Assembly: GCA_964016885.1 (NCBI GenBank)
Contig: OZ024757.1
Span: 7,130,001 to 7,194,000 of the forward strand
Length of the DNA: 64,000 nt
Source of the DNA: Eledone cirrhosa
Lineage: Eukaryota
Direction: 5' to 3'
The notes below the pieces were generated by a model that was given only the letters and a program-made list of their open reading frames with translations, searched no databases and was not told the origin of the DNA. A program made the position numbers and the translations under genes. Of this stretch, positions 13,267 through 58,225 are shown piece after piece; the first letter of the stretch is position 1, and every line of letters begins with the position of its first letter.

Positions 13267-13306
<40 letters not shown>

Positions 13307-13472
13307 AAGAATTAATATCTAGTAACATATGTATACAGATGCATATCAATGCTAGCAAATATATAGGCTTTGTCTAGGTAACTTTGTGGTTCAATGCATG
13401 GGGTTGCAGAACAATAATATGAGAGACGTAAAATAAGAAAATTATAAAATTAACTTACTTACTAAAATATCA

Positions 13473-13552
13473 CTTCCAACTAATTAGTTTCTGAAATGGA
13501 ATAAATAAACTTTCCGACGAAAATATAGAGAATCATTTCGTCGTCAGGGAAG
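13473..13552 (-). ncRNA. Type I hammerhead ribozyme motif, family D
   Basis: CUUCC-CUGACGA-c-GAAAUG..CAUUUC-a-GAAA-CUAAUUAG-UU^-GGAAG; stem I CUUCC/GGAAG; palindromic stem III ACUAAUUAGU. Confidence 0.8.
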
Positions 13553-13708
13553 ACTATTCTCAGCTAAGTGTCCAGGCATTCTCAGCTAATTGTCCAGACT
13601 CTGGAAACTTATACAAAAATAATTCAGTAGATAGAAAATAGCAAAGCGTGGACTGGATTCCTAGCCATTGAGAAAATCACTGCCTCTGCGTCGGTGGCTG
13701 AGAATAGT

Positions 13709-13788
13709 CTTCCCTGACGACGAAATGATTCTCAATATTTTCTTCGGAAAGTATATTTATACCATTTCAGAAACTAATTAGTTGGGAG
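13709..13788 (+). ncRNA. Type I hammerhead ribozyme motif, family D
   Basis: CUUCC CUGACGA cGAAAUG..AUAUUUUC(UUCG)GAAAGUAU..CAUUUCa GAAA CUAAUUAG UU^ GGGAG; predicted cut after 13783. Confidence 0.8.
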
Positions 13789-14232
13789 AGAAATTTTAGT
13801 AAGTAAGTTAATTTTATAATTTTCTTATTTTACGTCTCTCATATTATTATTCTGCAACCCCATGCATTGAACCACAAAGTTACTAAGAGAAAAACCTATA
13901 TATTTGCTAGCATTGATATGCATCTGTATGTATACATATGTTACTAAATATTAATTCTTTATAATTATCTCCAAATTATTTGTCGAGCAATATTTTGGCC
14001 ACGACTGCTGCTATGGTAGCAGGCAGGCCACTGTCTTATTAAGAAACCACTTTCAGCTGATTGACCTCGATGTCACGTGATTCATTCTTTTTGAATTTGC
14101 CACCGACGCAGAGGCAGTGATTTTCTCAATGGCTAGGGATTCAGTCCACGCTTTGCTATTTTCTATCCACTGAATTATTTTTGTATAAGTTTCCCGAGTC
14201 CTCGCTTTGCCTGGACACTTAGCTGAGAATAG

Positions 14233-14312
14233 TTTTCCTGACGACGAAATGATTCTTTATATTTTCTTCGGAAAGTATATTTATTCTATTTCAGAAACAA
14301 ATTAGTTGGGAG
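14233..14312 (+). ncRNA. Hammerhead motif family D, second tandem copy (slightly mutated)
   Basis: Core CUGACGA/GAAA intact; stem III reads ACAAAUUAGU (one mismatch); predicted cut after 14307, 524 nt from the previous site. Confidence 0.65.
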
Positions 14313-14358
14313 TGAAATTTTAGTAAGTAAGTTAATTTTATAATTTTCTTAATTTACA

Positions 14359-14396
<38 letters not shown>

Positions 14397-14880
14397 TACA
14401 TATATATATATATACATATTACATATATATATATATATATATACATATTACATATATACATATATATATATACATATTACATATATACATATTACATATA
14501 TATACATATATATATACATATTACATATATACATATATACATATTACATATATACATATATAAATATTACATATATATATATATATATACATATAACAAA
14601 TATATATATATACATATTACATATATATATATACATATTACATATATATATATACACATTACATATATATATATATTACATATATATATATACATATTAC
14701 ATATATATATATATACGTACATATTACATATATATATACATATATACATATTACATATATATACATATATACATATTACATATATATATATACATATATA
14801 CAGATTACATATATACATATATATATATTCATATTACATATATATACATATATATATATATATACATATTACATATATCT

Positions 14881-15676: not shown

Positions 15677-16502
15677 TACATATGTATATATATATACATA
15701 TATACATGTATATATATATACATATATACATATATATGTATATATATACATATATACACATATATACATATTACATATATATATACATATATACATATAT
15801 ATATATATACATATATACATATTACATATATATACATATTACATATATATACATATTGCATTATATATATACATATTACATATATATACATATATACATA
15901 TTACATATATATATATACATTTTACATATATATATATTACATATATATATACATATTACATATATATACATATTACATATATATACATATATACATATAT
16001 ATACATATATACATATTACATATATACATATATACATAATACATATATATATATATATACATATTACATATATATACATATATACATATTACTTTTTTAT
16101 ATATATACATATTACATATATATATATACATATTATATATATATAAAGATATACATATTACATATATATATACATATTACATATGTATATATATACATAT
16201 TACATATATATATACATATATACATATTACATATATATATATACATATATACATATTACATATATATAGATATACATATATACATATACATATAGATAGT
16301 ATTAGTTATACTATTTATGGTTATGTAAACACAAAACCTTAAGCAGTTGTAAGTATTTTACACACACCCTAAATAGTGGTAGGCAGTAATGTATTACTAC
16401 CTTATTACCAGTAAGTTAAGTAGCTCAATGTAAAAACATCAGATGATTTACAGAGCAGTTATATGAAATATATGAATCAAAGAACTGTTCAAAACATTAT
16501 TG

Positions 16503-16549
16503 TGCTTACAGCTGTTTCCTCCAAACCGAGGTTTGGATTCTTCGGAGCA
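16503..16549 (-). ncRNA. Hammerhead variant motif, family B
   Basis: Exact reverse complement of 18359-18405. Confidence 0.7.
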
Positions 16550-16598
16550 ATTTATTAATGCATGGACAGTTATATGACCTCCTTTTCAGCCGAGAACT

Positions 16599-16913
16599 GC
16601 CGAGAACTGCTTCAAAATTAGATATAACTCGCACATCCACTCGTTCAAAAAGCACAGCCTAGCCAACTCCACCTCACTTTCTAGCTACATTCACTATCTA
16701 AAATCTAAAAATAAACCATACACACTCAAATGGGAAGTGATAGGCAGCGCGACCTCGTATAAACCACCTAATAAATTCTGTAACCTCTGTATACTAGAGA
16801 CACACAATATTATCTTCTCCAACCGTAACCTACTTAACAAAAAATCTGAGGTGTTTGCAACTTGCCAGCACCGCCTCAGACATTCCTTCCAAAACTTTAA
16901 GCCCCATATATAG
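16599..16913 (+). pseudogene. C-terminal 104 aa of a Penelope-like GIY-YIG endonuclease (no start codon, absent from the ORF track)
   Basis: My translation: AENCFKIRYNSHIHSFKKHSLANSTSLSSYIHYLKSKNKPYTLKWEVIGSATSYKPPNKFCNLCILETHNIIFSNRNLLNKKSEVFATCQHRLRHSFQNFKPHI*; FKxRYxxH, CxLCxxE, LLN and CxH motifs. Confidence 0.8.
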
Positions 16914-18358
16914 CAATGTCGGACTGGAACCTAACACCACATCTAGCATCAAACACCAGAGACACACCCTATACTACATACCCAACACTAGCTGATCCAT
17001 TATAACACAAACAACGACATCCCTCTGGAACCCTTCGCAGGGAAAATACCCATTTATACCTCTACGGCAGGTGTGACAACATCCACCCACCTGGACGGCG
17101 CTACGCCGCTCTAAGGGTAATTTGAGCATCAATTGATCGGTTGGATGGTGTTGGGCAGAGGAAACACCTTCCTTAGACAGATGTAAAATGTTTTAATCGA
17201 GTAGCGCTGTTGACCAGTAGGACCAGGCCGCTGAGCGCAGTGAGTGAATGCAATGCAACTGCCGTGCGGGTTGTACGTATATGGATGATCTGACGGTCAG
17301 AGAGGGGTCGCGAGGACTGCGACTTGACCTTTGGCCTGCCTGGGGATGATTATCTTTCGACATCCAATGTAGCAAGCGATGACCCGGATCTTACCAGAGA
17401 TCATTGGGTCCTGAAGCAATCCTGCAATCACCGCGCCTGGTCATATGAGCAGACTACAACCATAGAGATCATTAATTTAGAATCCTCGCTCATCATCTAT
17501 AATTTCCATTTGTAGCACCTTAAGATGGGTTAATCCACCCTAATAATAATATGATCACCTTCAGCATAATTTAGTTAAACTACTCTATAGTTAGTACACT
17601 TTATGCTTTAAAAGTCTCTCTTGGAAGGTGCACCTCACCATAGAATTTAGGGTCTATATTGAGACACACTTTAATGGCTAGATATAGAAACCCCAGAGTT
17701 ACCTCCCCGCATGCATTAACTCCCCTTAGCCACACACACACTTCCGGTATTCAATGGCGTCTCTCGAAACGTAACAACCACCTGTATCGAACTAAAGAGC
17801 ACCAGACTACGATCTCTAACTGGATTGTCGTGGATTATGTGAAAGGCATATAATCGAAATATACACTCCCTTGACCATGAAAATACCGAAGTACATGAAT
17901 TACTTGACATCCCTGCGCTGTGCATCTCCAATACTTATAACACTTTTAATGCTTGCACTATCTTTAATGCTTATAATATTTCTCCACACACAGACTATAT
18001 CAATCATATAAAGACTTTGCCACCATATCTACCAACCTAACACTCTTATTTACCTACCTAAGTGCCTCTACCACACATATCTCTCTGCCACACTATATAA
18101 ACAAGACGCACATGCGTGCCACACATATAACATTTGCACTATATAACCACTTATCTTCATGTTGTACTTTAACCTATATCTTTGATTTTTTTGATTGTAC
18201 CTATTAATATAAATGTAATCTCGAAGTGTGTACTGCCACTCTAAATTCTGTAATGAATGTTGACCCACAATGTTTGAATATGTATCAATGTTTGAATATG
18301 TATTGGTATGTCTCTCGGCTGAAAAGGAGGTCATATAACTGTCCATGCATTAATAAAT

Positions 18359-18405
18359 TGCTCCGAAGAATCCAAACCTCGGTTTGGAGGAAACAGCTGT
18401 AAGCA
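18359..18405 (+). ncRNA. Hammerhead variant motif, family B (core CCGAAGA)
   Basis: UGCU CCGAAGA a UCCAAACC uc GGUUUGGA g GAAA CAGCUG UA^ AGCA; stem I UGCU/AGCA, 8-bp stem II, palindromic stem III ACAGCUGU. Confidence 0.7.
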
Positions 18406-18539
18406 CAATAATGTTTTGAACAGTTCTTTGATTCATATATTTCATACATATAGATATACATATTACATATATATATATATACATATATACATATATATAT
18501 ACATATATACAAATTACGTATATATATATACATATATAC

Positions 18540-19426: not shown

Positions 19427-19472
19427 ATTAGCCGACAATGTTTCGTCCTATTAAGGACTCATCAGGGCAATT
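19427..19472 (-). ncRNA. Canonical minimal type I hammerhead ribozyme, family A, in a ~120-bp island (19378-19495)
   Basis: AUUGCC CUGAUGA GUCCU uaau AGGAC GAAAC AUU GUC^ GGC UAAUAAA; all core nucleotides canonical, GUC cleavage triplet. Confidence 0.9.
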
Positions 19473-20557: not shown

Positions 20558-20598
<41 letters not shown>

Positions 20599-20599
<1 letters not shown>

Positions 20600-21640
20600 A
20601 AGAATTAATATCTAGTAACATATGTATACAGATGCATATCAATGCTAGCAAATATATAGGCTTTGTCTAGGTAACTTTGTGGTTCAATGCATGGGGTTGC
20701 AGAACAATAATATGAGAGACGTAAAAGAAGAAAATTATAAAATTAACTTACTTACTAAAATATCACTTCCAACTAATTAGTTTCTGAAATGGAATAAATA
20801 AACTTTCCGACGAAAATATAGAGAATCATTTCGTCGTCAGGGAAGACTATTCTCAGCTAAGTGTCCAGGCATTCTCAGCTAAGTGTCCAGACTCTGGAAA
20901 AATAATTCAGTAGATAGAAAATAGCAAAGCGTGGACTGGATTCCTAGCCATTGAGAAAATCACTGCCTCTGCGTCGGTGGCTGAGAATAGTCTTCCCTGA
21001 CGACGAAATGATTCTCAATATTTTCTTCGGAAAGTATATTTATACCATTTCAGAAACTAATTAGTTGGGAGTGAAATTTTAGTAAGTAAGTTAATTTTAT
21101 AATTTTCTTATTTTACGTCTCTCATATTATTGTTCTGCAACCCCATGCATTGAACCACAAAGTTACTAAGAGAAAACCTATATATTTGCTAGCATTGATA
21201 TGCATCTGTATGTATACATATGTTACTAGATATTAATTCTTTATAATTATCTCCAAATTATTTGTCGAGCAATATTTTGGCCACGACTTCTGCTATGGTA
21301 GAAGGCAGGCCACTGCCTTATTAAGAAACCACTTTCAGCTGATTGACCTCGATGTCACGTGATTCATTCTTTTTGAATTTGCCACCGACGCAGAGGCAGT
21401 GATTTTCTCAATGGCTAGGGATTCAGTCCACGCTTTGCTATTTTCTATCCACTGAATTATTTTTGTATAAGTTTCCCGAGTCCTCGCTTTGCCTGGACAC
21501 TTAGCTGAGAATAGATTTCCTGACGACGAAATGATTCTTTATATTTTCTTCGGAAAGTATATTTATTCTATTTCAGAAACAAATTAGTTGGGAGTGAAAT
21601 TTTAGTAAGTAAGTTAATTTTATAATTTTCTTATTTTACA

Positions 21641-21648
<8 letters not shown>
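20599..21648. mobile_element. Family D element block 2, with hammerheads at 20766-20845 (-), 20992-21071 (+) and ~21515-21594 (+)
   Basis: Near-identical to 13306-14367; predicted + strand cuts after 21066 and 21589 (523 nt apart). Confidence 0.85.
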
Positions 21649-24646: not shown

Positions 24647-24692
24647 ATTAGCCGACAATGTTTCGTCCTATTAAGGACTCATCAGGGCAATT
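24647..24692 (-). ncRNA. Hammerhead ribozyme family A, copy 2
   Basis: Identical motif to 19427-19472, 5220 bp downstream. Confidence 0.9.
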
Positions 24693-27396: not shown

Positions 27397-27429
<33 letters not shown>

Positions 27430-27430
<1 letters not shown>

Positions 27431-28483
27431 AAGAATTAATATCTAGTAACATATATACATACAGATGCATATCAATGCTAGCAAATATATAGGTTTTGTC
27501 TTAGTAACTTTGTGGTTCAATGCATGGGGTTGCAGAACAATAATATGAGAGACGTAAAATAAGAAAATTATAAAATTAACTTACTTACTTAAATTTCACT
27601 CCCAACTAATTAGTTTCTGAAATGGAATAAATATACTTTCCGACGAAAATATAGAGAATCATTTCGTCGTCAGGGAAGACTATTCTCAGCTAAGTGTCCA
27701 GGCATTCTCAACTAAGTGTCCAGACTCTGGAAACTTATACAAAAATAATTCAGTGGAGAGAATATAGCAAAGCGTGGACTGGATTCCTAGCCATTGAGAA
27801 AATCACTGCCTCTGCGTCGGTGGCTGAGAATAGTATTCCCTGACGACGAAATGATTCTCTATATTTTCTTCGGAAAGTATATTTATTCCATTTCAGAAAC
27901 TAATTAGTTGGGAGTGAAATTTTAGTAAGTAAGTTAATTTTATAATTTTCTTATTTTACGTCTCTCATATTATTGTTCTGCAACCCCATGCATTGAACCA
28001 CAAAGTTACTAAGACAAAGCCTATATATTTGCTAGCATTGATATGCATCTGTATGTATACATATGTTACTAGATATTAATTCTTTATAATTATCTCCAAA
28101 TTATTTGTCGAGCAATATTTGGCCACGACTGCAGCTATGGTAGCAGGCAGGCCGCTGTCTTATTAAGAAACCACTTTCCACTGATTGACCTCGATGTCAC
28201 GTGATTCATTCTTTTTCAATTTGCCACCGACGCAGAGGCAGTGATTTTCTCAATGGCTACGAATTCAGTCCACGCTTTGCTCTTTTCTATCCACTGAATT
28301 ATTTTTGTATAAGTTTCCAGAGTCCTCGCTTTGCCTGGACACTTAGCTGAGAATAGTCTTCCCTGACAACTTAATGATTCTTTATATTTTCTTCGGAAAG
28401 TATATTTATTCTATTTCAGAAACAAATTAGTTGGGAGTGAAATTTTAGTAGGTAAGTTAATTTTATAATTTTCTTATTTTACG

Positions 28484-28492
<9 letters not shown>
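27430..28492. mobile_element. Family D element block 3, with hammerheads at 27599-27678 (-), 27835-27914 (+) and a core-mutated copy at ~28358-28437 (+)
   Basis: Same architecture as blocks 1 and 2; third motif reads CUGACAA. Confidence 0.85.
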
Positions 28493-29196: not shown

Positions 29197-31076
29197 TACA
29201 TATTACGTATATATATACATATATACATGTATATATATATATACATATATACATATTACATATATATACATATTACATATATATACATATTACATTATAT
29301 ATATACATATTACATATATACATATATACATATTACATATTATATATATATATATACATATTACACACATATATACATACATATTACATATATATATATA
29401 CATATATACATATTACATATATATACATATATACATATTACATATATATATATATACATATATACAGATTACATATATACATATATATATATACATATTA
29501 CATATATATACATATATATATATACATATTACATATATGTATACATATATATATATATATATATACATATATACATATGTATATATATATACATATATAC
29601 ATGTATATATATATACATATATACATATATATATATATATAAATATATATATATACATATATACACATATATAGATATTACATATATATATACATATATA
29701 CATATATATATATACATATATACATATTACATATATATACATATTACATATATATACATATTACATTGTATATATACATATTACATATATATACATATAT
29801 ACATATTACATATATATATATACATATTACATATATATACATATTACATATATATATACATATTACATATATATACATATACATATTACATATATATACA
29901 TATATACATATATATACATATATATATTACATATATACATATAAACATATTACATATATATATATATACATATTACATATATATATATATATATATATAC
30001 ATATTACTTTTTTATATATATACATATTACATATATATATATACATATTATATATATATAAAGATATACATATTACATATATATATATACATATTACATA
30101 TATATATATATACATATTACATATATATATATGTATATACACATTACACATATATATATATATATACATACATATTACATATATATATACATATATACAT
30201 ATTACATATATATATATACATATATACATATTACATATATATATATACATATATACATATATATATACATATATACATATTACGTATATATATACATATA
30301 TACATATATATATATACATACATACATATATATATATACATATATACATATATATATACAAATATACATATTACATATATATACATATTACATATATATA
30401 CATATTACATTATATATATACATATTACATATATATACAAATATACATATTACATATATATATATATATACATATTACATATATATACATATTACATATA
30501 TATATACATATTACATACATATACATATACATATTACATATATATACATATATACATATATATACATATATACATATTACATATATATACATATATACAT
30601 ATTACATATATATACATATACATATTACATATATATACATATACATATTACATATATATACATATATACATATATATACATATATACATATTACATATAT
30701 ACATATATATATATTATATATATATATACATATTACATATATATATATATATATATATATACATATTACTTTTTTATATATATACATATTACATATATAT
30801 ATACATATTATATATATATATACATATTACATATATATATACATATTACATATATATATATATACATATTACATATATATATATATACGTGTTACACATA
30901 TATATATATATATACATATATATTACATATATATATACATATATATATATTACATATATATATATATATATACATATATACATATTACATATATGTGTAT
31001 ACATATATACATATTAAATATATACATATATATATATATATATATACATATTACATATATATATATATATACATTT

Positions 31077-34000
31077 AGTATTAAGGGTACTATTTATGGT
31101 TATGTATACAATAAAACCTTTAATGGTAATATATTATATATACACAAACCCTAAATAGTGAGAGATAGTCATTAATTACTATCCTATTACCAGTAAGATA
31201 AATAGCTCAATGTAATAACATCAGTTGTTTTACAGAGCAGTTATATAGAGATTACAGTAATCAAAGTTCAGTTTAAGTCATTTATTTGCTTACAATTGTT
31301 TCCTCCAAACCGAGGTTTAGATTCTTCGGAGCAACTATTTACTGATCTATAACATACTTGACCTCCTTTTCAACCCAAGAGACACATAAACCATATGCGC
31401 ATATTGATCAACAGTGGGGTGACATTCATCAAATGATATAGCATGGCAATTTACATATAAAGGTTACAGGATAAAAATAAAATAAAAACAAGAGTGAAAA
31501 TAAGAGTGAAAATAAAGATAAACATGAAGCATTGGCAGTCTATGAAGATAAAGCAAGAGGAAAGCTTAGAGTAGTCAGTGTATGAAACAATCTCCCGTGT
31601 AGCATGCACGCGTGTCTTATTTATACATGATTAGAGTGCGTCAGAATGATATTTGCAGGGTCAGGCAGTTGAAGCAGGCAATCGATCTTATTATGTAGGC
31701 TGAATTATTAAGTCATTTATTCTCATACATCTGTATGATATACAGTCTCGGATGCGGGGAAACACCAAAATATCAAAAACTTTCAACATACTATAAACCT
31801 TATTGTATCGTGGGCAAGGCCGTACCACTGTCCCTGCTCACACCACCACTCACATAATCCATGAGACGCAATATATATAGAGAACACGCGTCTATCGTAT
31901 AATTCGCGGTGGTTCAGCATATAGTCAAGCTATAAACCGTATCCAGTCGGTTCTTAATTAATATATCATGCTGTCCAGATTCCGGAAGTGCCTGAATGAC
32001 TAAGGGGAATTAATGCGTAAGGGGAGGTAACTAGCTAGTTATCTTAGTTACATTACTATCCTAAACTACATTAATGGTGATTCAAATACGTGCCTATCAT
32101 GTGAAGTTATAACTAATATCTAGAGTATGTTACCCATTTATAGGTTAGAAAGTTGTCCATTAAGAAGTACAAGGGTGTATATATTAGGATGATTACCATC
32201 CATTAATTAAGGGGTGTCATATCTGAACGTTCTATAAGAGGAGTCAGACTCTCAAGTCACTGCTCCATGCAAATGTAATATAACAGTAGGACCTGGTATG
32301 GTCCCACTATTATATATGCCCCCGGTAGGCTCCGGGTCATTGGATGCCTGCATCTCCAGTAAATCTTCGGTATGGTCCGGATATCCAATCTCTCATATAA
32401 ATGCACTAGTCTGGCCATCAAGCAATAGACAACCCCCGTCTCAAATATAAATCAATTATGTATCACATCTACAAGCTAGAGTGGAGTCTATTAATAGGTA
32501 CTAATGGAGTTCACATCAAGATGATTACGTGCATAATTCATTGAACTGATCGCTTACAGTATATATTCACAGAACAATACGATTATCTATCTAATCATCA
32601 ATCTATCTCTTGGTGGTAATCCATGCACAGGACTATGCTATCGCAACCAGTACCGTGTCCCCAATTTATACTAATCTTATATTTGTGCAATGCAGAATAA
32701 GTAGTCCACGGTCGAGATATCAGTATTAGAGGTACAAGGGGGTATTCCCAGGGTAGGTGGTACTAAAATGCTGTCAGTATTATCTTTAGAGATTAGTATA
32801 AATTGGGGACACGGTACTGGTTGCGATAGCATAGTCCTGTGCATGGATTAGCACCAAGAGATAGATTGATGATTAGATAGATAATCGTATTGTTCTGTGA
32901 ATATATACTGTAAGCGATCAGTTCAATGAATTATGCACGTAATCATCTTGATGTGAACTCCTTTAGTACCTATTAATAGACTCCACTCTAGCTTGTAGAT
33001 GTGATACATAATTGATTTATATTTGAGACGGGGGTTGTCTATTGCTTGATGGCCAGACTAGTGCATCTATATGAGAGATTGGATCTCCGGACCATACCGA
33101 AGATTTACTGGAGATGCAGGCATCCAATGACCCGGAGCCTACCGGGGGCATATATAATAGTGGGACCATACCAGGTCCTACTGTTATATTACATTTGCAT
33201 GGAGCAGTGACTTGAGAGTCTGACTCCTCTTATAGAACGTTCAGATATGACACCCCTTAATTAATGGATGGTAATCATCCTAATATATACACCCTTGTAC
33301 TTCTTAATGGACAACTCTCTAACCTATAAATGGGTAACATACTCTAGATATTAGTTATAACTTCACATGATAGGCACGTATTTGAATCACCATTTGAATC
33401 ACCATTAATGTAGTTTAGGATAGTAATGTAACTAAGATAACTAGCTAGTTACCTCCCCTTACGCATTAATTCCCCTTAGTCATTCAGGCACTTCCGGAAT
33501 CTGGACAGCATGATATATTAATTAAGAACCGACTGGATACGGTTTATAGCTTGACTATATGCTGAACCACCGCGAATTATACGATAGACGCGTGTTCTCT
33601 ATATATATTGCGTCTCATGGATTATGTGAGTGGTGGTGTGAGCAGGGACAGTGGTACGGCCTTGCCCACGATACAATAAGGTTTATAGTATGTTGAAAGT
33701 TTTTGATATTTTGGTGTTTCTCCGCATCCGAGACTGTATATCATACAGATGTATGAGAATAAATGACTTAATAATTCAGCCTACACAATAAGATCGATTG
33801 CCTGATTCAACTGCCTTACCCTGCAAATATCATTCTGACGCACGCTAATCATGTATAAATAAGACACGCGTGCATGCTACACGGGAGATTGTTTCATACA
33901 CTGACTACTCTAAGCTTTCCTCTTGATTTATCTTCATAGAATACCAACGCTTCGTGTTTATCTTTATTTTCACTCTTATGTTCACTCTTGTTTTTATTTT

Positions 34001-34236
34001 ATTTTTATCCTGTAACCTTTATATGTAAATTGCCATGCTATATCATTTGATGAATGTCACCCCACTGTTGATCAATATGCGCATATGGTTTATGTGTCTC
34101 TTGGGTTGAAAAGGAGGTCAAGTATGTTATAGATCAGTAAATAGTTGCTCCGAAGAATCCAAACCTCGGTTTGGAGGAAACAATTGTAAGCAAATAAATG
34201 ACTTAAACTGAACTTTGATTACTGTAATCTCTATAT
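31077..34236. mobile_element. Penelope-like non-coding remnant forming a ~3 kb palindrome (arms 31244-32677 and 32790-34236, 112-bp spacer)
   Basis: Arms are reverse complements with only scattered substitutions and one ~12-bp duplication; homologous but diverged relative to 16297-16590 and ~17000-18447; family B hammerheads at 31286-31334 (-) and 34145-34193 (+). Confidence 0.9.
34145..34193 (+). ncRNA. Hammerhead variant motif, family B (second subfamily)
   Basis: UUGCU CCGAAGA a UCCAAACC uc GGUUUGGA g GAAA CAAUUG UA^ AGCAA followed by AAUAAA; stem III palindrome ACAAUUGU. Confidence 0.7.
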
Positions 34237-34519: not shown

Positions 34520-34565
34520 ATTAGCCGACAATGTTTCGTCCTATTAAGGACTCATCAGGGCAATT
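34520..34565 (-). ncRNA. Hammerhead ribozyme family A, copy 3
   Basis: Identical motif to 19427-19472. Confidence 0.9.
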
Positions 34566-40384: not shown

Positions 40385-40478
<94 letters not shown>

Positions 40479-40483
<5 letters not shown>

Positions 40484-41312
40484 GACGTAAAATAAGAGAA
40501 TTATAAAATTAGCTTACTTCCTAAAATATCACTTCCTCTCATCTAAGTATCCAGGCAAAGCGGGGACTCTGGAAAGTTATTCAAAAATAATACTGTGGAT
40601 AGAAAATAGCAAAGCGTGGACTGAATTCCTCGCCATTGGGAAAATCCTTTATAATTTTCTTATTTTACGTCGCTCATATTATTGTTCTGCAACCCCATGC
40701 ATTGAACCACAAATTTACTAAGACAAAACCTATATATTTGCTAGCATTGATATGCATCTGTATGTATATATGTTACTGGATATTAATTCTTTATAATTAT
40801 CTACAAATTATTTGTCGAGCAATATTGGCCATGACTGCTGCTATGGTAGCAGGCAGGCCGCTGTCTTATTAGCAAACCACTTTCCACTGATTGACCTCGT
40901 TGTCACGTGATTCATTCTTTTTGAATTTGCCACCGACGCAGAGGCAGTGATTTTCTCAATGGCTAGGAATTCAGTCCACGCTTTGCTATTTTCTATCCAC
41001 TGAATTATTTTTTAATAAGTTTCCAGTGTCCACGCTTTGCCTGGATACTTAGATGAGAATAGACTTCCCTGACGACGGAATGCTTCTTCGTATTTTCTTA
41101 GGAAAATATATTTATTCCATTCCAGAAACTAATTAGTTGGAAGTGATATTTTAGTAAGTAAGTTAATTTTATAATTTTCTTATTTTACGTCTCTCATATT
41201 ATTGTTCTGCAACCCCATGCATTGAACCACAAAGTTACTAAGACAAAACGTATATATTTGCTAGCATTGATATGCATCTGTATGTATATATATTACTAGA
41301 TATTAATTCTTT
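40479..41312. mobile_element. Family D element block 4 (more diverged; deleted inverted part plus ~1.3 monomers)
   Basis: tttataattttcttattttacgtc recurs at ~40648 and ~41168 (about 520 bp apart). Confidence 0.8.
41063..41144 (+). ncRNA. Type I hammerhead ribozyme motif, family D (diverged copy)
   Basis: ACUUCC CUGACGA c GGAAUG..UAUUUUCU ua GGAAAAUA..CAUUCC a GAAA CUAAUUAG UU^ GGAAGU; perfect 6-bp stem I; compensatory change in stem II. Confidence 0.85.
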
Positions 41313-41338
41313 ATATATACATATATATATATATATGC

Positions 41339-56704: not shown

Positions 56705-57850
<1,146 letters not shown>

Positions 57851-58225
57851 TAACGCATTGACATCAGTGATAAATCATTCTCTCAAATTTGTGAATTAAT
57901 GAGAATACAAATACATATCATTGTAACATCTTAGGGAAATCATTCTCTTTGAATGTTACATTAACTACACACACACACATATACATACAGCTGGGAAGCC
58001 ATATCACTTTGATATATTTGGTACATCATTCTCTAAATGTTGTGGCTTCACTAGACACGAACATATACATACAGGAGAGGAACCATATCACTGATGTCTG
58101 TGATAAATCCTTCTCTAAATGTTGTGGTTTAATTAGACACTAACATATACAGGAGAGGAACTATATCACTGTGATGTCTGTGGTAAATCATTCTATTATA
58201 AAGATTACTTAATGCAACACAATTA
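57851..58225 (+). pseudogene. Decayed zinc-finger repeats (about 4-5) downstream of the stop codon
   Basis: catacaggagaggaaccatatcactg..tgtgatgtctgtggtaaatcattc remnants with frameshifts and stops. Confidence 0.8.

Follow-up and report, generated by a model that had tools for sequence, protein, structure and literature searches.

The 64-kb stretch of the Eledone cirrhosa genome analyzed here (contig OZ024757.1, positions 7,130,001 to 7,194,000) harbors a small, repeated non-coding element whose units carry an unusual type I hammerhead ribozyme motif and which, in all likelihood, belongs to the non-autonomous Penelope-like elements (PLEs). This stretch is hereafter the window, to whose coordinates all plain positions refer, while L-numbers designate genomic loci fetched elsewhere, the copies examined being the best-scoring or first-listed ones.

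The hammerhead-bearing repeat in the window

The motif is found at ten places of the window, seven on the forward strand (core starts at 13714, 14238, 20997, 21520, 27840, 28363 and 41069) and three on the reverse strand (13547, 20840 and 27673). The forward pairs predict cleavage after 13783/14307, 21066/21589 and 27909/28432, i.e., with spacings of 524, 523 and 523 nucleotides (nt). The motif, coordinates and spacings proposed by a first-pass annotation made from the letters alone all hold, and the GAAAUG/CAUUUC helix, the c(UUCG)g hairpin and the palindrome that it described are present.

Self-comparison of the window gives four blocks. Block 1 (13304-14367, both strands) is a two-armed insertion in (TA)n-type satellite. 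Its inverted arm (13304-13698, reverse strand) covers monomer positions ~403-524 then 1-267, with a core start at 13547, a predicted cut after 13478 and a long 3' end at ~13304, and its direct arm holds 1.28 units and terminates at a short 3' end. This block provides one complete, non-coding monomer of 524 nt (13697-14220, forward strand), followed by a decayed downstream hammerhead (14223-14312, forward strand; cut after 14307, short end at 14366) with changes in stems I and III. Block 2 (20597-21648) is a DNA-level duplicate of block 1 with 10 mismatches, and block 3 (27428-28491) an older duplicate of the same insertion with 37 mismatches, whose downstream core is broken at 28363 (CTGACAA). 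Block 4 (40478-41314) is a separate insertion of a sister subfamily (GGAAUG/CAUUCC), its left end being short and its right end long; it contains a single hammerhead (41069), and its inverted arm, devoid of the hammerhead body, is joined exactly at the predicted cut.

The inversion junction is identical in blocks 1 and 3 and in L008, located ~460 kb away, block 2 reads alike there, and private changes of the downstream motif are common to blocks 1-3 and L008. Judged by their sequences, these copies are one old insertion duplicated at the DNA level inside a TACATAT-type satellite. Because blocks 1-3 share this junction and these private changes, the window records two insertion events and not four. 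The earlier description of four blocks with ~1.3 tandem copies, each unit bearing a written consensus, is correct regarding the tandem copies of blocks 1-3; it does not extend to four independent events, to the single motif of block 4 or to the downstream copies, which depart from this consensus in stems I and III and, at 28363, in the core. The surrounding region (12100-40500) is a long (TA)n/TACATAT satellite tract with several PLE-type insertions and local duplication at ~7-kb spacing.

Fold and conservation of the hammerhead

In block 1, the type I hammerhead (13709-13788, forward strand) comprises stem I (13709-13713/13784-13788), the core (13714-13720), stem II (13722-13727/13763-13768) and the GAAA box (13770-13773), with cleavage predicted after 13783 at a GUU site. 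Stem II is continued by a domain II extension (13728-13762, forward strand) made of an internal loop and an apical helix (13735-13742/13747-13754) capped by a UUCG loop (13743-13746). Stem III is a palindrome (13772-13783, forward strand) of 12 nt, and not 10 nt as first described, when A14 and U17 are included; its self-dimer is predicted at -10.8 kcal/mol, and no hairpin is predicted for the 12-mer alone. The motif has the CUGANGA and GAAA core, the NUH site and the three helices of type I hammerheads, with one extra base on each side of stem II, a C at 13721 and an A at 13769.

The first-pass annotation had placed a C-A pair at the base of stem II, an arrangement better read as extra bases flanking a G10.1-C11.1 pair. 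Indeed, PLE hammerheads are described with an extra base between positions 9 and 10.1 together with a G10.1-C11.1 pair (PMC4209133), which accounts for the C at 13721, the A before G12 being a further base. Two extra bases at the base of stem II are also present in two coding PLE families of this genome (A..G and A..A), one of which has a GUU site as well. The hammerhead is hence atypical, as was claimed, by its long domain II, but not by its GUU site. Rfam returned no hammerhead in 13600-14400 with E up to 10, in agreement with the prediction that standard descriptors could miss it, and among the 150 rows listed out of 226 its only hammerhead matches are to another, minimal family. This third hammerhead family (19427-19471, 24647-24691 and 34520-34564, reverse strand) is a minimal canonical type I motif (RF00163, 31.7 bits, below the gathering score) followed by AATAAA and sitting in 120-127-nt islands within the satellite.

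The covariation alignment consisted of 32 rows, namely 26 of 30 cluster medoids (L001:2018 and L015 being left out), two same-locus replacement copies, two window motifs and two added loci. Helix cells were paired in 88% of cases, compared with 34-51% with slid partners, and the covariation score was unmatched by any of 500 shuffles, a control that is inflated by relatedness. Pairing reached 97.9% in stem II, where both partners of two pairs had changed (in 18 and 13 rows), and 98.4% in stem I, with two-sided changes; each of the five counted outer apical pairs was changed on both sides at least once, and the inner apical pairs reached 50% only, because loop lengths differ between subfamilies. 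Among copies found by BLAST, the CUGANGAC core was intact in 66/76 of subfamily A and in 56/58 of subfamily B (rows of the latter being pre-filtered on a loose core), and stem III was intact in 66/76 copies of subfamily A. Between both subfamilies, the core and its flanks are 88-95% identical, versus 69-76% for domain II, the tail and the body. The first-pass annotation had staked its proposal on a better conservation of the core and stems than of flanking sequence, and such is the pattern observed for the core; stems I and II and the apical helix covary. On this comparative evidence, the type I hammerhead fold is real and under selection. Minimum free energy favored another pairing, between the 5' and 3' flanks, which was set aside as it is not kept in subfamily B.

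Regarding the periphery of the fold, the internal loop of domain II probably pairs with the 5' flank as a pseudoknot bracing stems I and II. The candidate 5' strand, UGAGAAU (13699-13705, forward strand), faces AUUCUCA in the internal loop (13728-13734), and in the 32 rows this flank-loop pairing was 94.5% paired, with one two-sided pair. At 205 distinct sites, a sample enriched for variant flanks, the flank/loop words were GAGAA/TTCTC in 140 cases, GAAAA/TTTTC in 14, wobble combinations in 10 and other or unassigned in 30. The combination of a GAAAA flank with a TTTT loop gave 794 matches in the genome for 4 in the control, and by eye, ~13 true flank/loop mismatches were counted among the first 100 listed rows of a pattern which also matches TTTTCT and whose total is for that reason no valid mismatch count. 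The pseudoknot is graded as probable because one compensatory event adds to this broad conservation. Hammerheads braced by stem I-II pseudoknots are known (PMC3088659), and in the literature examined, in its main texts, none was found described for metazoan PLE-type motifs.

A widespread non-coding family

The genome-wide search suggested by the first-pass annotation uncovers thousands of dispersed copies. With the monomer as query, 2028 first-look candidates were obtained, the best 30 loci being distributed on 9 contigs with ~95% identity; a second subfamily (B), ~73% identical, yielded 2002 candidates and forms arrays of at least 5 units. The pattern CTGAYGAY-N40..62-GAAACTAATTAGTT has 10,324 exact matches in the genome and none in a reversed control, and the motif is therefore present far beyond chance. 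At least two tandem units with complete hammerheads occur at many loci, for instance L061 with three identical motifs, and are lacking from blocks 3 and 4 of the window.

The monomer measures ~520-570 nt across subfamilies, 48 distinct cut-to-cut monomers having subfamily medians of 521-553 nt and a range of 471-571 nt. The longest ATG frame in these 48 monomers is 69 amino acids (median 27.5), and the element has no coding capacity. The qualification of the 523-nt monomer as larger than usual applies only in part: this length exceeds the 170-400 nt given for retrozyme monomers in the main text of one report (PMC7229834), yet falls within the consensus lengths of 51-972 bp given in that of a recent preprint (bioRxiv 10.64898/2026.07.22.740005). 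Self-pairing of the linear monomer had a z-score of -2.06, and circular folds of four monomers had z-scores of -2.7, -4.3, -4.8 and -0.9 (12 crude shuffles each), with 60-66% of positions paired. Two words are kept across subfamilies, a donor-like GTAAGT(AAGT) just 3' of the cut (13798-13806) and a palindromic TCACGTGA in the monomer body (~14073-14080), which we take to be a possible intron donor and a possible promoter element, respectively. Three contig sets from one sample hold the short end with (AT)n loose ends; this is possibly the source sample, so that they provide no independent support.

A Penelope-type insertion architecture

The insertions end in 3' at two fixed sites within (TA)n, monomer positions 148 (the short end; 13844) and 267 (the long end), i.e., 61 and 180 nt downstream of the predicted ribozyme cut. 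The tail between both ends measures 119 nt in block 1 (13845-13963, forward strand) and 116-120 nt across insertions. The 5' ends are variable and often inverted, producing partial tandems with an inverted, 5'-truncated arm, and the targets are microsatellite or AT-rich sequences, with (TA)n among them. Similarly, published PLEs occur as partial tandems and inverted copies, and one of their ends bears a tail of 30-40 bp (PMC8557442); this tail lies between two internal start sites of the reverse transcriptase (RT), both target strands are cut and extended, and the PLE protein is predicted to be a dimer (PMC11167929).

The two 3' ends are combined in an almost strict manner. In the 25 two-armed insertions with a motif in both arms, a script assigned 23 as short-plus-long; by inspection, L110 proved to be mixed too, L123 was unclear, and L001 and L002 turned out to be one event, giving 23 of 24 independent insertions as short-plus-long (p = 1.5e-6). 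Head-to-head junctions were collected from the first 50 of 155 sites, 45 of which were fetched (5 duplicate or unrelated ones being omitted) and 41 kept by script. Among these 41, 27 were mixed by script, 4 more by inspection and 3 after a read-through unit (long flanks), the rest being one short-short junction and six that were left unassigned.

Units of one insertion also resemble each other, differing by 2.1% (A) and 2.4% (B) within insertions versus 3.1% and 3.2% between insertions, and diagnostic columns agree in 270/299 (A) and 475/611 (B) pairs versus 61% and 57% expected. This likeness fits a single source, which may be a circle or a tandem transcript. Ordered differences were also compared with a view to dimeric versus monomeric templates; those that recur are mostly located in homopolymer runs and variable columns.

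Retrozymes were earlier put forward as non-autonomous PLEs (PMC7229834; bioRxiv 10.64898/2026.07.22.740005), and the first-pass annotation had suggested a retrozyme or non-autonomous PLE for the present repeat. The fixed 3' ends, the (TA)n targets, the inverted arms and the covarying hammerhead fold support this assignment, and the element is very probably a small, non-coding and non-autonomous Penelope-like retroelement family of the retrozyme type.

Arm ends at the predicted cut

A pattern with two foreign letters just 5' of the predicted cut has 74 matches in the genome, while a control placed 3 nt upstream has 16. Of these matches, 72 were fetched and reduced to 65 distinct sites, 63 of them true breaks; at 18 sites, the break is a head-to-head join in which the second arm also terminates no more than 2 nt from the cut. 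The letter preceding the first G is an A in 52/63 true breaks, which fits an untemplated A on the partner cDNA. In the head-to-head set, 18/48 arm ends lie at 0/-1 in a 28-position window (24 junctions with at most one shared letter; p = 1e-4 against a null of 0.15); these 24 junctions contain the doubtful L251, L254 and L260 and omit four flagged rows, one of which (L285) is also at 0/-1.

In several cases (L212, L213, L227 and L230), the arm reads through a first site and ends precisely at the following one, which is what a linear RNA cleaved at its upstream motif alone, or a circle that opens while being copied, should produce. In L207-L209, as in block 4, the sequence skips from the cut to the far side of stem I. 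Since more than 10,000 motifs are read through, the usual template would be uncut or re-joined at the site. The pile-up of arm ends at the predicted bond is probably the footprint of cleavage in vivo. Four of the 45 fetched head-to-head loci (L264, L265, L278 and L284) are joined via the 12-nt stem III palindrome as shared sequence.

Related elements and the probable partner

The window also contains, at 16285-18452, a two-armed copy, truncated in 5', of family C (also found at L197-L200), a very young autonomous PLE of the Poseidon type for which 150 scored places are 100% identical over an 85-amino-acid piece of the endonuclease. Like the small element, family C has two fixed 3' ends with similar motifs at both, (TA)n targets and an extra base on either side of the stem II base (here an A and a G), and by eye, with no statistic attached, the end motifs of the small element resemble both of its end motifs. 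Unlike the small element, with which it has no blastn homology, family C is autonomous, with an 832-amino-acid frame, a 4.2-kb unit, a 177-nt tail and a hammerhead with a CCGAAGA core and a plain hairpin II, in which the edge of the palindrome lies one base away from the cut. Family C loci displayed no break at the cut but, having been chosen for their endonuclease, they are uninformative in this respect. Taken as a whole, a Poseidon-type PLE is the probable mobilizing partner.

Other PLEs were considered as parents and rejected. A Neptune-like PLE (L171-L176, 796-amino-acid frame) has no homology to the element, and the PLE frames found beside L023, L038, L058, L088, L107 and L123 are separate neighbors, five of them beyond (TA)n runs. 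The Neptune-like PLE is abundant, with a probable upstream frame and a 3' region which is largely microsatellite, and no hammerhead was seen in it before the first (TA)n run. At L058:900-1500 (reverse strand), another PLE family has a CUGAUGA hammerhead in which stem II is flanked on either side by an extra A and the cleavage site is GUU; a Poseidon-like frame begins after it. Within the window, a related PLE family has a nearly perfect inverted insertion of 3.2 kb at 31064-34235, whose arms are 98-99% complementary, with a ~180-nt tail at one end and hammerheads at 31329 (reverse strand) and 34150 (forward strand). Apart from these elements, an array of ~12 C2H2 zinc-finger repeats with a period of 84 nt is located at 56749-57972.

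Proposed mechanism and alternative explanations

In the mechanism that we propose, a multi-unit transcript would be bound in trans by the RT-endonuclease of a Poseidon-type PLE, which would nick both strands of a (TA)n target and start reverse transcription at two fixed internal sites, an architecture that is observed in the insertions with a chemistry that we infer. Each target strand would use one start site, so that short- and long-ended arms would be joined head to head. Each unit would fold into the type I hammerhead supported by covariation, its palindromic stem III being expected to pair between two copies and the pseudoknot, a probable feature, holding stems I and II together. It is likely that a fraction of the molecules undergoes in vivo cleavage by the ribozyme at GUU^G, the RT then running off the cut 5' end and the arms stopping there. 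A circular RNA form of the element is a possibility, although a somewhat doubtful one. The full scenario, in which pseudoknot-braced, dimer-type hammerhead RNAs are cut in vivo, re-joined as circles and copied by a dimeric Poseidon RT from two start sites, truncated copies recording cleavage to the base, is tentative, and we would consider it rather unlikely in all its parts together.

Several observations speak against this mechanism or some of its steps. The searches found no autonomous element bearing this hammerhead, none of 140 loci has a PLE frame contiguous with the element, no 5' border is common to the 37 non-microsatellite borders, and blastn found no homology of the element to the two PLE families that were fully fetched, out of many. 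Within the fold, stem III is invariant in the alignment rows, most of which were retrieved with a search pattern that fixed it, and a GUU site with A14-U17 complementarity may favor an inactive fold; the flank-loop pairing is broken at some of the 205 sites (GATAA/TTCTC in 7, GAAAA/TTCTC in 4), and the GAAAA/TTTT double change belongs to one clade in a tree of 28/48 monomers from which the tested columns were excluded. At the cut itself, raw counts step down across the site, and a control at the 3' edge of stem I gave 66 raw matches versus 74; by eye, 37 of those 66 are TA joins invisible to the test pattern, which leaves 29, and the like-for-like excess at the cut is only about twofold. In vitro, moreover, PLE hammerheads are described as slow or protein-assisted and as not needed for insertion (PMC4209133, PMC11167929), and 8/9 predicted Xenopus retrozymes did not cut (bioRxiv 10.64898/2026.07.22.740005).

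One might envision the same non-autonomous PLE with a fold that rarely or never cuts in vivo and is kept as a protein-binding or RNA-dimerizing structure, the arm ends being RT pauses at the 3' edge of the stem III duplex. The end of the palindrome does coincide with the cut, the motifs read through vastly outnumber the 63 true breaks, the downstream control is equally large in raw count, and in Anolis no RNA reads ending at the cut were reported and cleavage was unneeded for insertion (PMC11167929). However, it is the catalytic core, rather than domain II, the tail or the body, that is best kept between subfamilies, the 12-mer palindrome alone folds no hairpin, and arms that pass one site to stop exactly at the next speak against pausing, as does the jump from the cut to the far side of stem I in block 4 and L207-L209; we regard this explanation as improbable.

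It is far less probable still that the copies are truncated pseudo-long terminal repeats (pLTRs), derived from some unsampled, longer coding PLE, or that they form a satellite propagated by DNA-level duplication alone. Blocks 1-3 and L008 are indeed such duplicates, and only the best-scoring or first-listed copies were considered, but the other insertions, spread over many contigs, each have junctions and flanks of their own, and their two-site fixed 3' ends and 5' inversions are marks of retrotransposition. Moreover, head-to-tail monomers follow each other in register, and no frame intervenes, both in the 48 cut-to-cut monomers and in the arrays of at least 5 units. As a whole explanation, a pLTR or satellite origin thus appears largely refuted by the copies themselves, and we retain a non-autonomous PLE whose hammerhead is likely to be active in vivo.

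Comparison with known systems and perspectives

The kind of element described here is already known, and its closest counterparts are the metazoan non-LTR (long terminal repeat) retrozymes as presented in the main texts of two reports (PMC7229834; bioRxiv 10.64898/2026.07.22.740005): non-coding tandem units, whose type I hammerhead has a weak palindromic stem III, copy numbers in the thousands, a proposed derivation from PLEs and a comparable length. Unlike them, the element has a non-canonical hammerhead with a 49-nt domain II and occurs mostly as 1-2 units per arm with PLE tails and inversions, and not as long plain arrays. Circular RNA, a trait of retrozymes, is for the element a possibility, and its link to PLEs relies on insertion architecture and end motifs instead of pLTR homology or co-occurrence.

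With Penelope and Poseidon PLEs, as described in the main texts of PMC4209133, PMC8557442 and PMC11167929, it shares partial tandems, an inverted 5'-truncated arm, a tail at one end and microsatellite targets and, with the hammerheads of PLE pLTRs (PMC4209133), the extra base 9/10.1, G10.1-C11.1 and a palindromic stem III. It differs from PLEs by the absence of an open reading frame and by its tail, ~119 nt instead of 30-40 bp, and from their hammerheads by a helix II extended with an internal loop and a hairpin instead of a plain 7-8-bp stem. While metazoan PLE hammerheads are described as minimal, it also has a further base before G12 and probably a stem I-II pseudoknot. Such a pseudoknot would resemble those, found in ~40% of the representatives considered in PMC3088659, in which a helix at the periphery of stems I and II replaces loop-loop contacts; those described in the text pair a terminal loop with a flanking tail, whereas the element would use the internal loop of domain II in a PLE-type motif with a dimer-type stem III. 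The core variants that the text of the same paper names do not include one with an insertion between 11.1 and G12.

No published description of this element family was found in the main texts searched, supplementary files, Repbase and Dfam being outside this search. As far as these literature searches show, three features are apparently new: how this hammerhead is built, the combination in a non-coding element of a long tail and an almost strict pairing of short with long ends, and the mark that the cut seems to have left on genomic copies. The function of PLE hammerheads has been called unclear (PMC8557442), and in the single in vitro study of a PLE, as its text reports, cleavage was dispensable and no RNA reads ended at the cut (PMC11167929). 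Ends of genomic copies at the predicted bond offer a means of inferring cleavage, in any PLE family, from its DNA only. Furthermore, the insertions bring architectural evidence, beyond co-occurrence and pLTR trees, for PLE machinery moving a small hammerhead-bearing repeat, and the short-plus-long rule limits the ways in which the two RT start sites can be used. The more than 10,000 motifs invisible to Rfam suggest that current counts of animal hammerheads are too low and, as the element suggests, PLE-type motifs can carry tertiary bracing. Finally, if the RNAs prove to be cut, re-joined as circles and copied by a Poseidon RT, this family would offer the first view of PLE hammerhead activity in vivo, as well as a compact natural substrate on which to study the whole PLE cycle.
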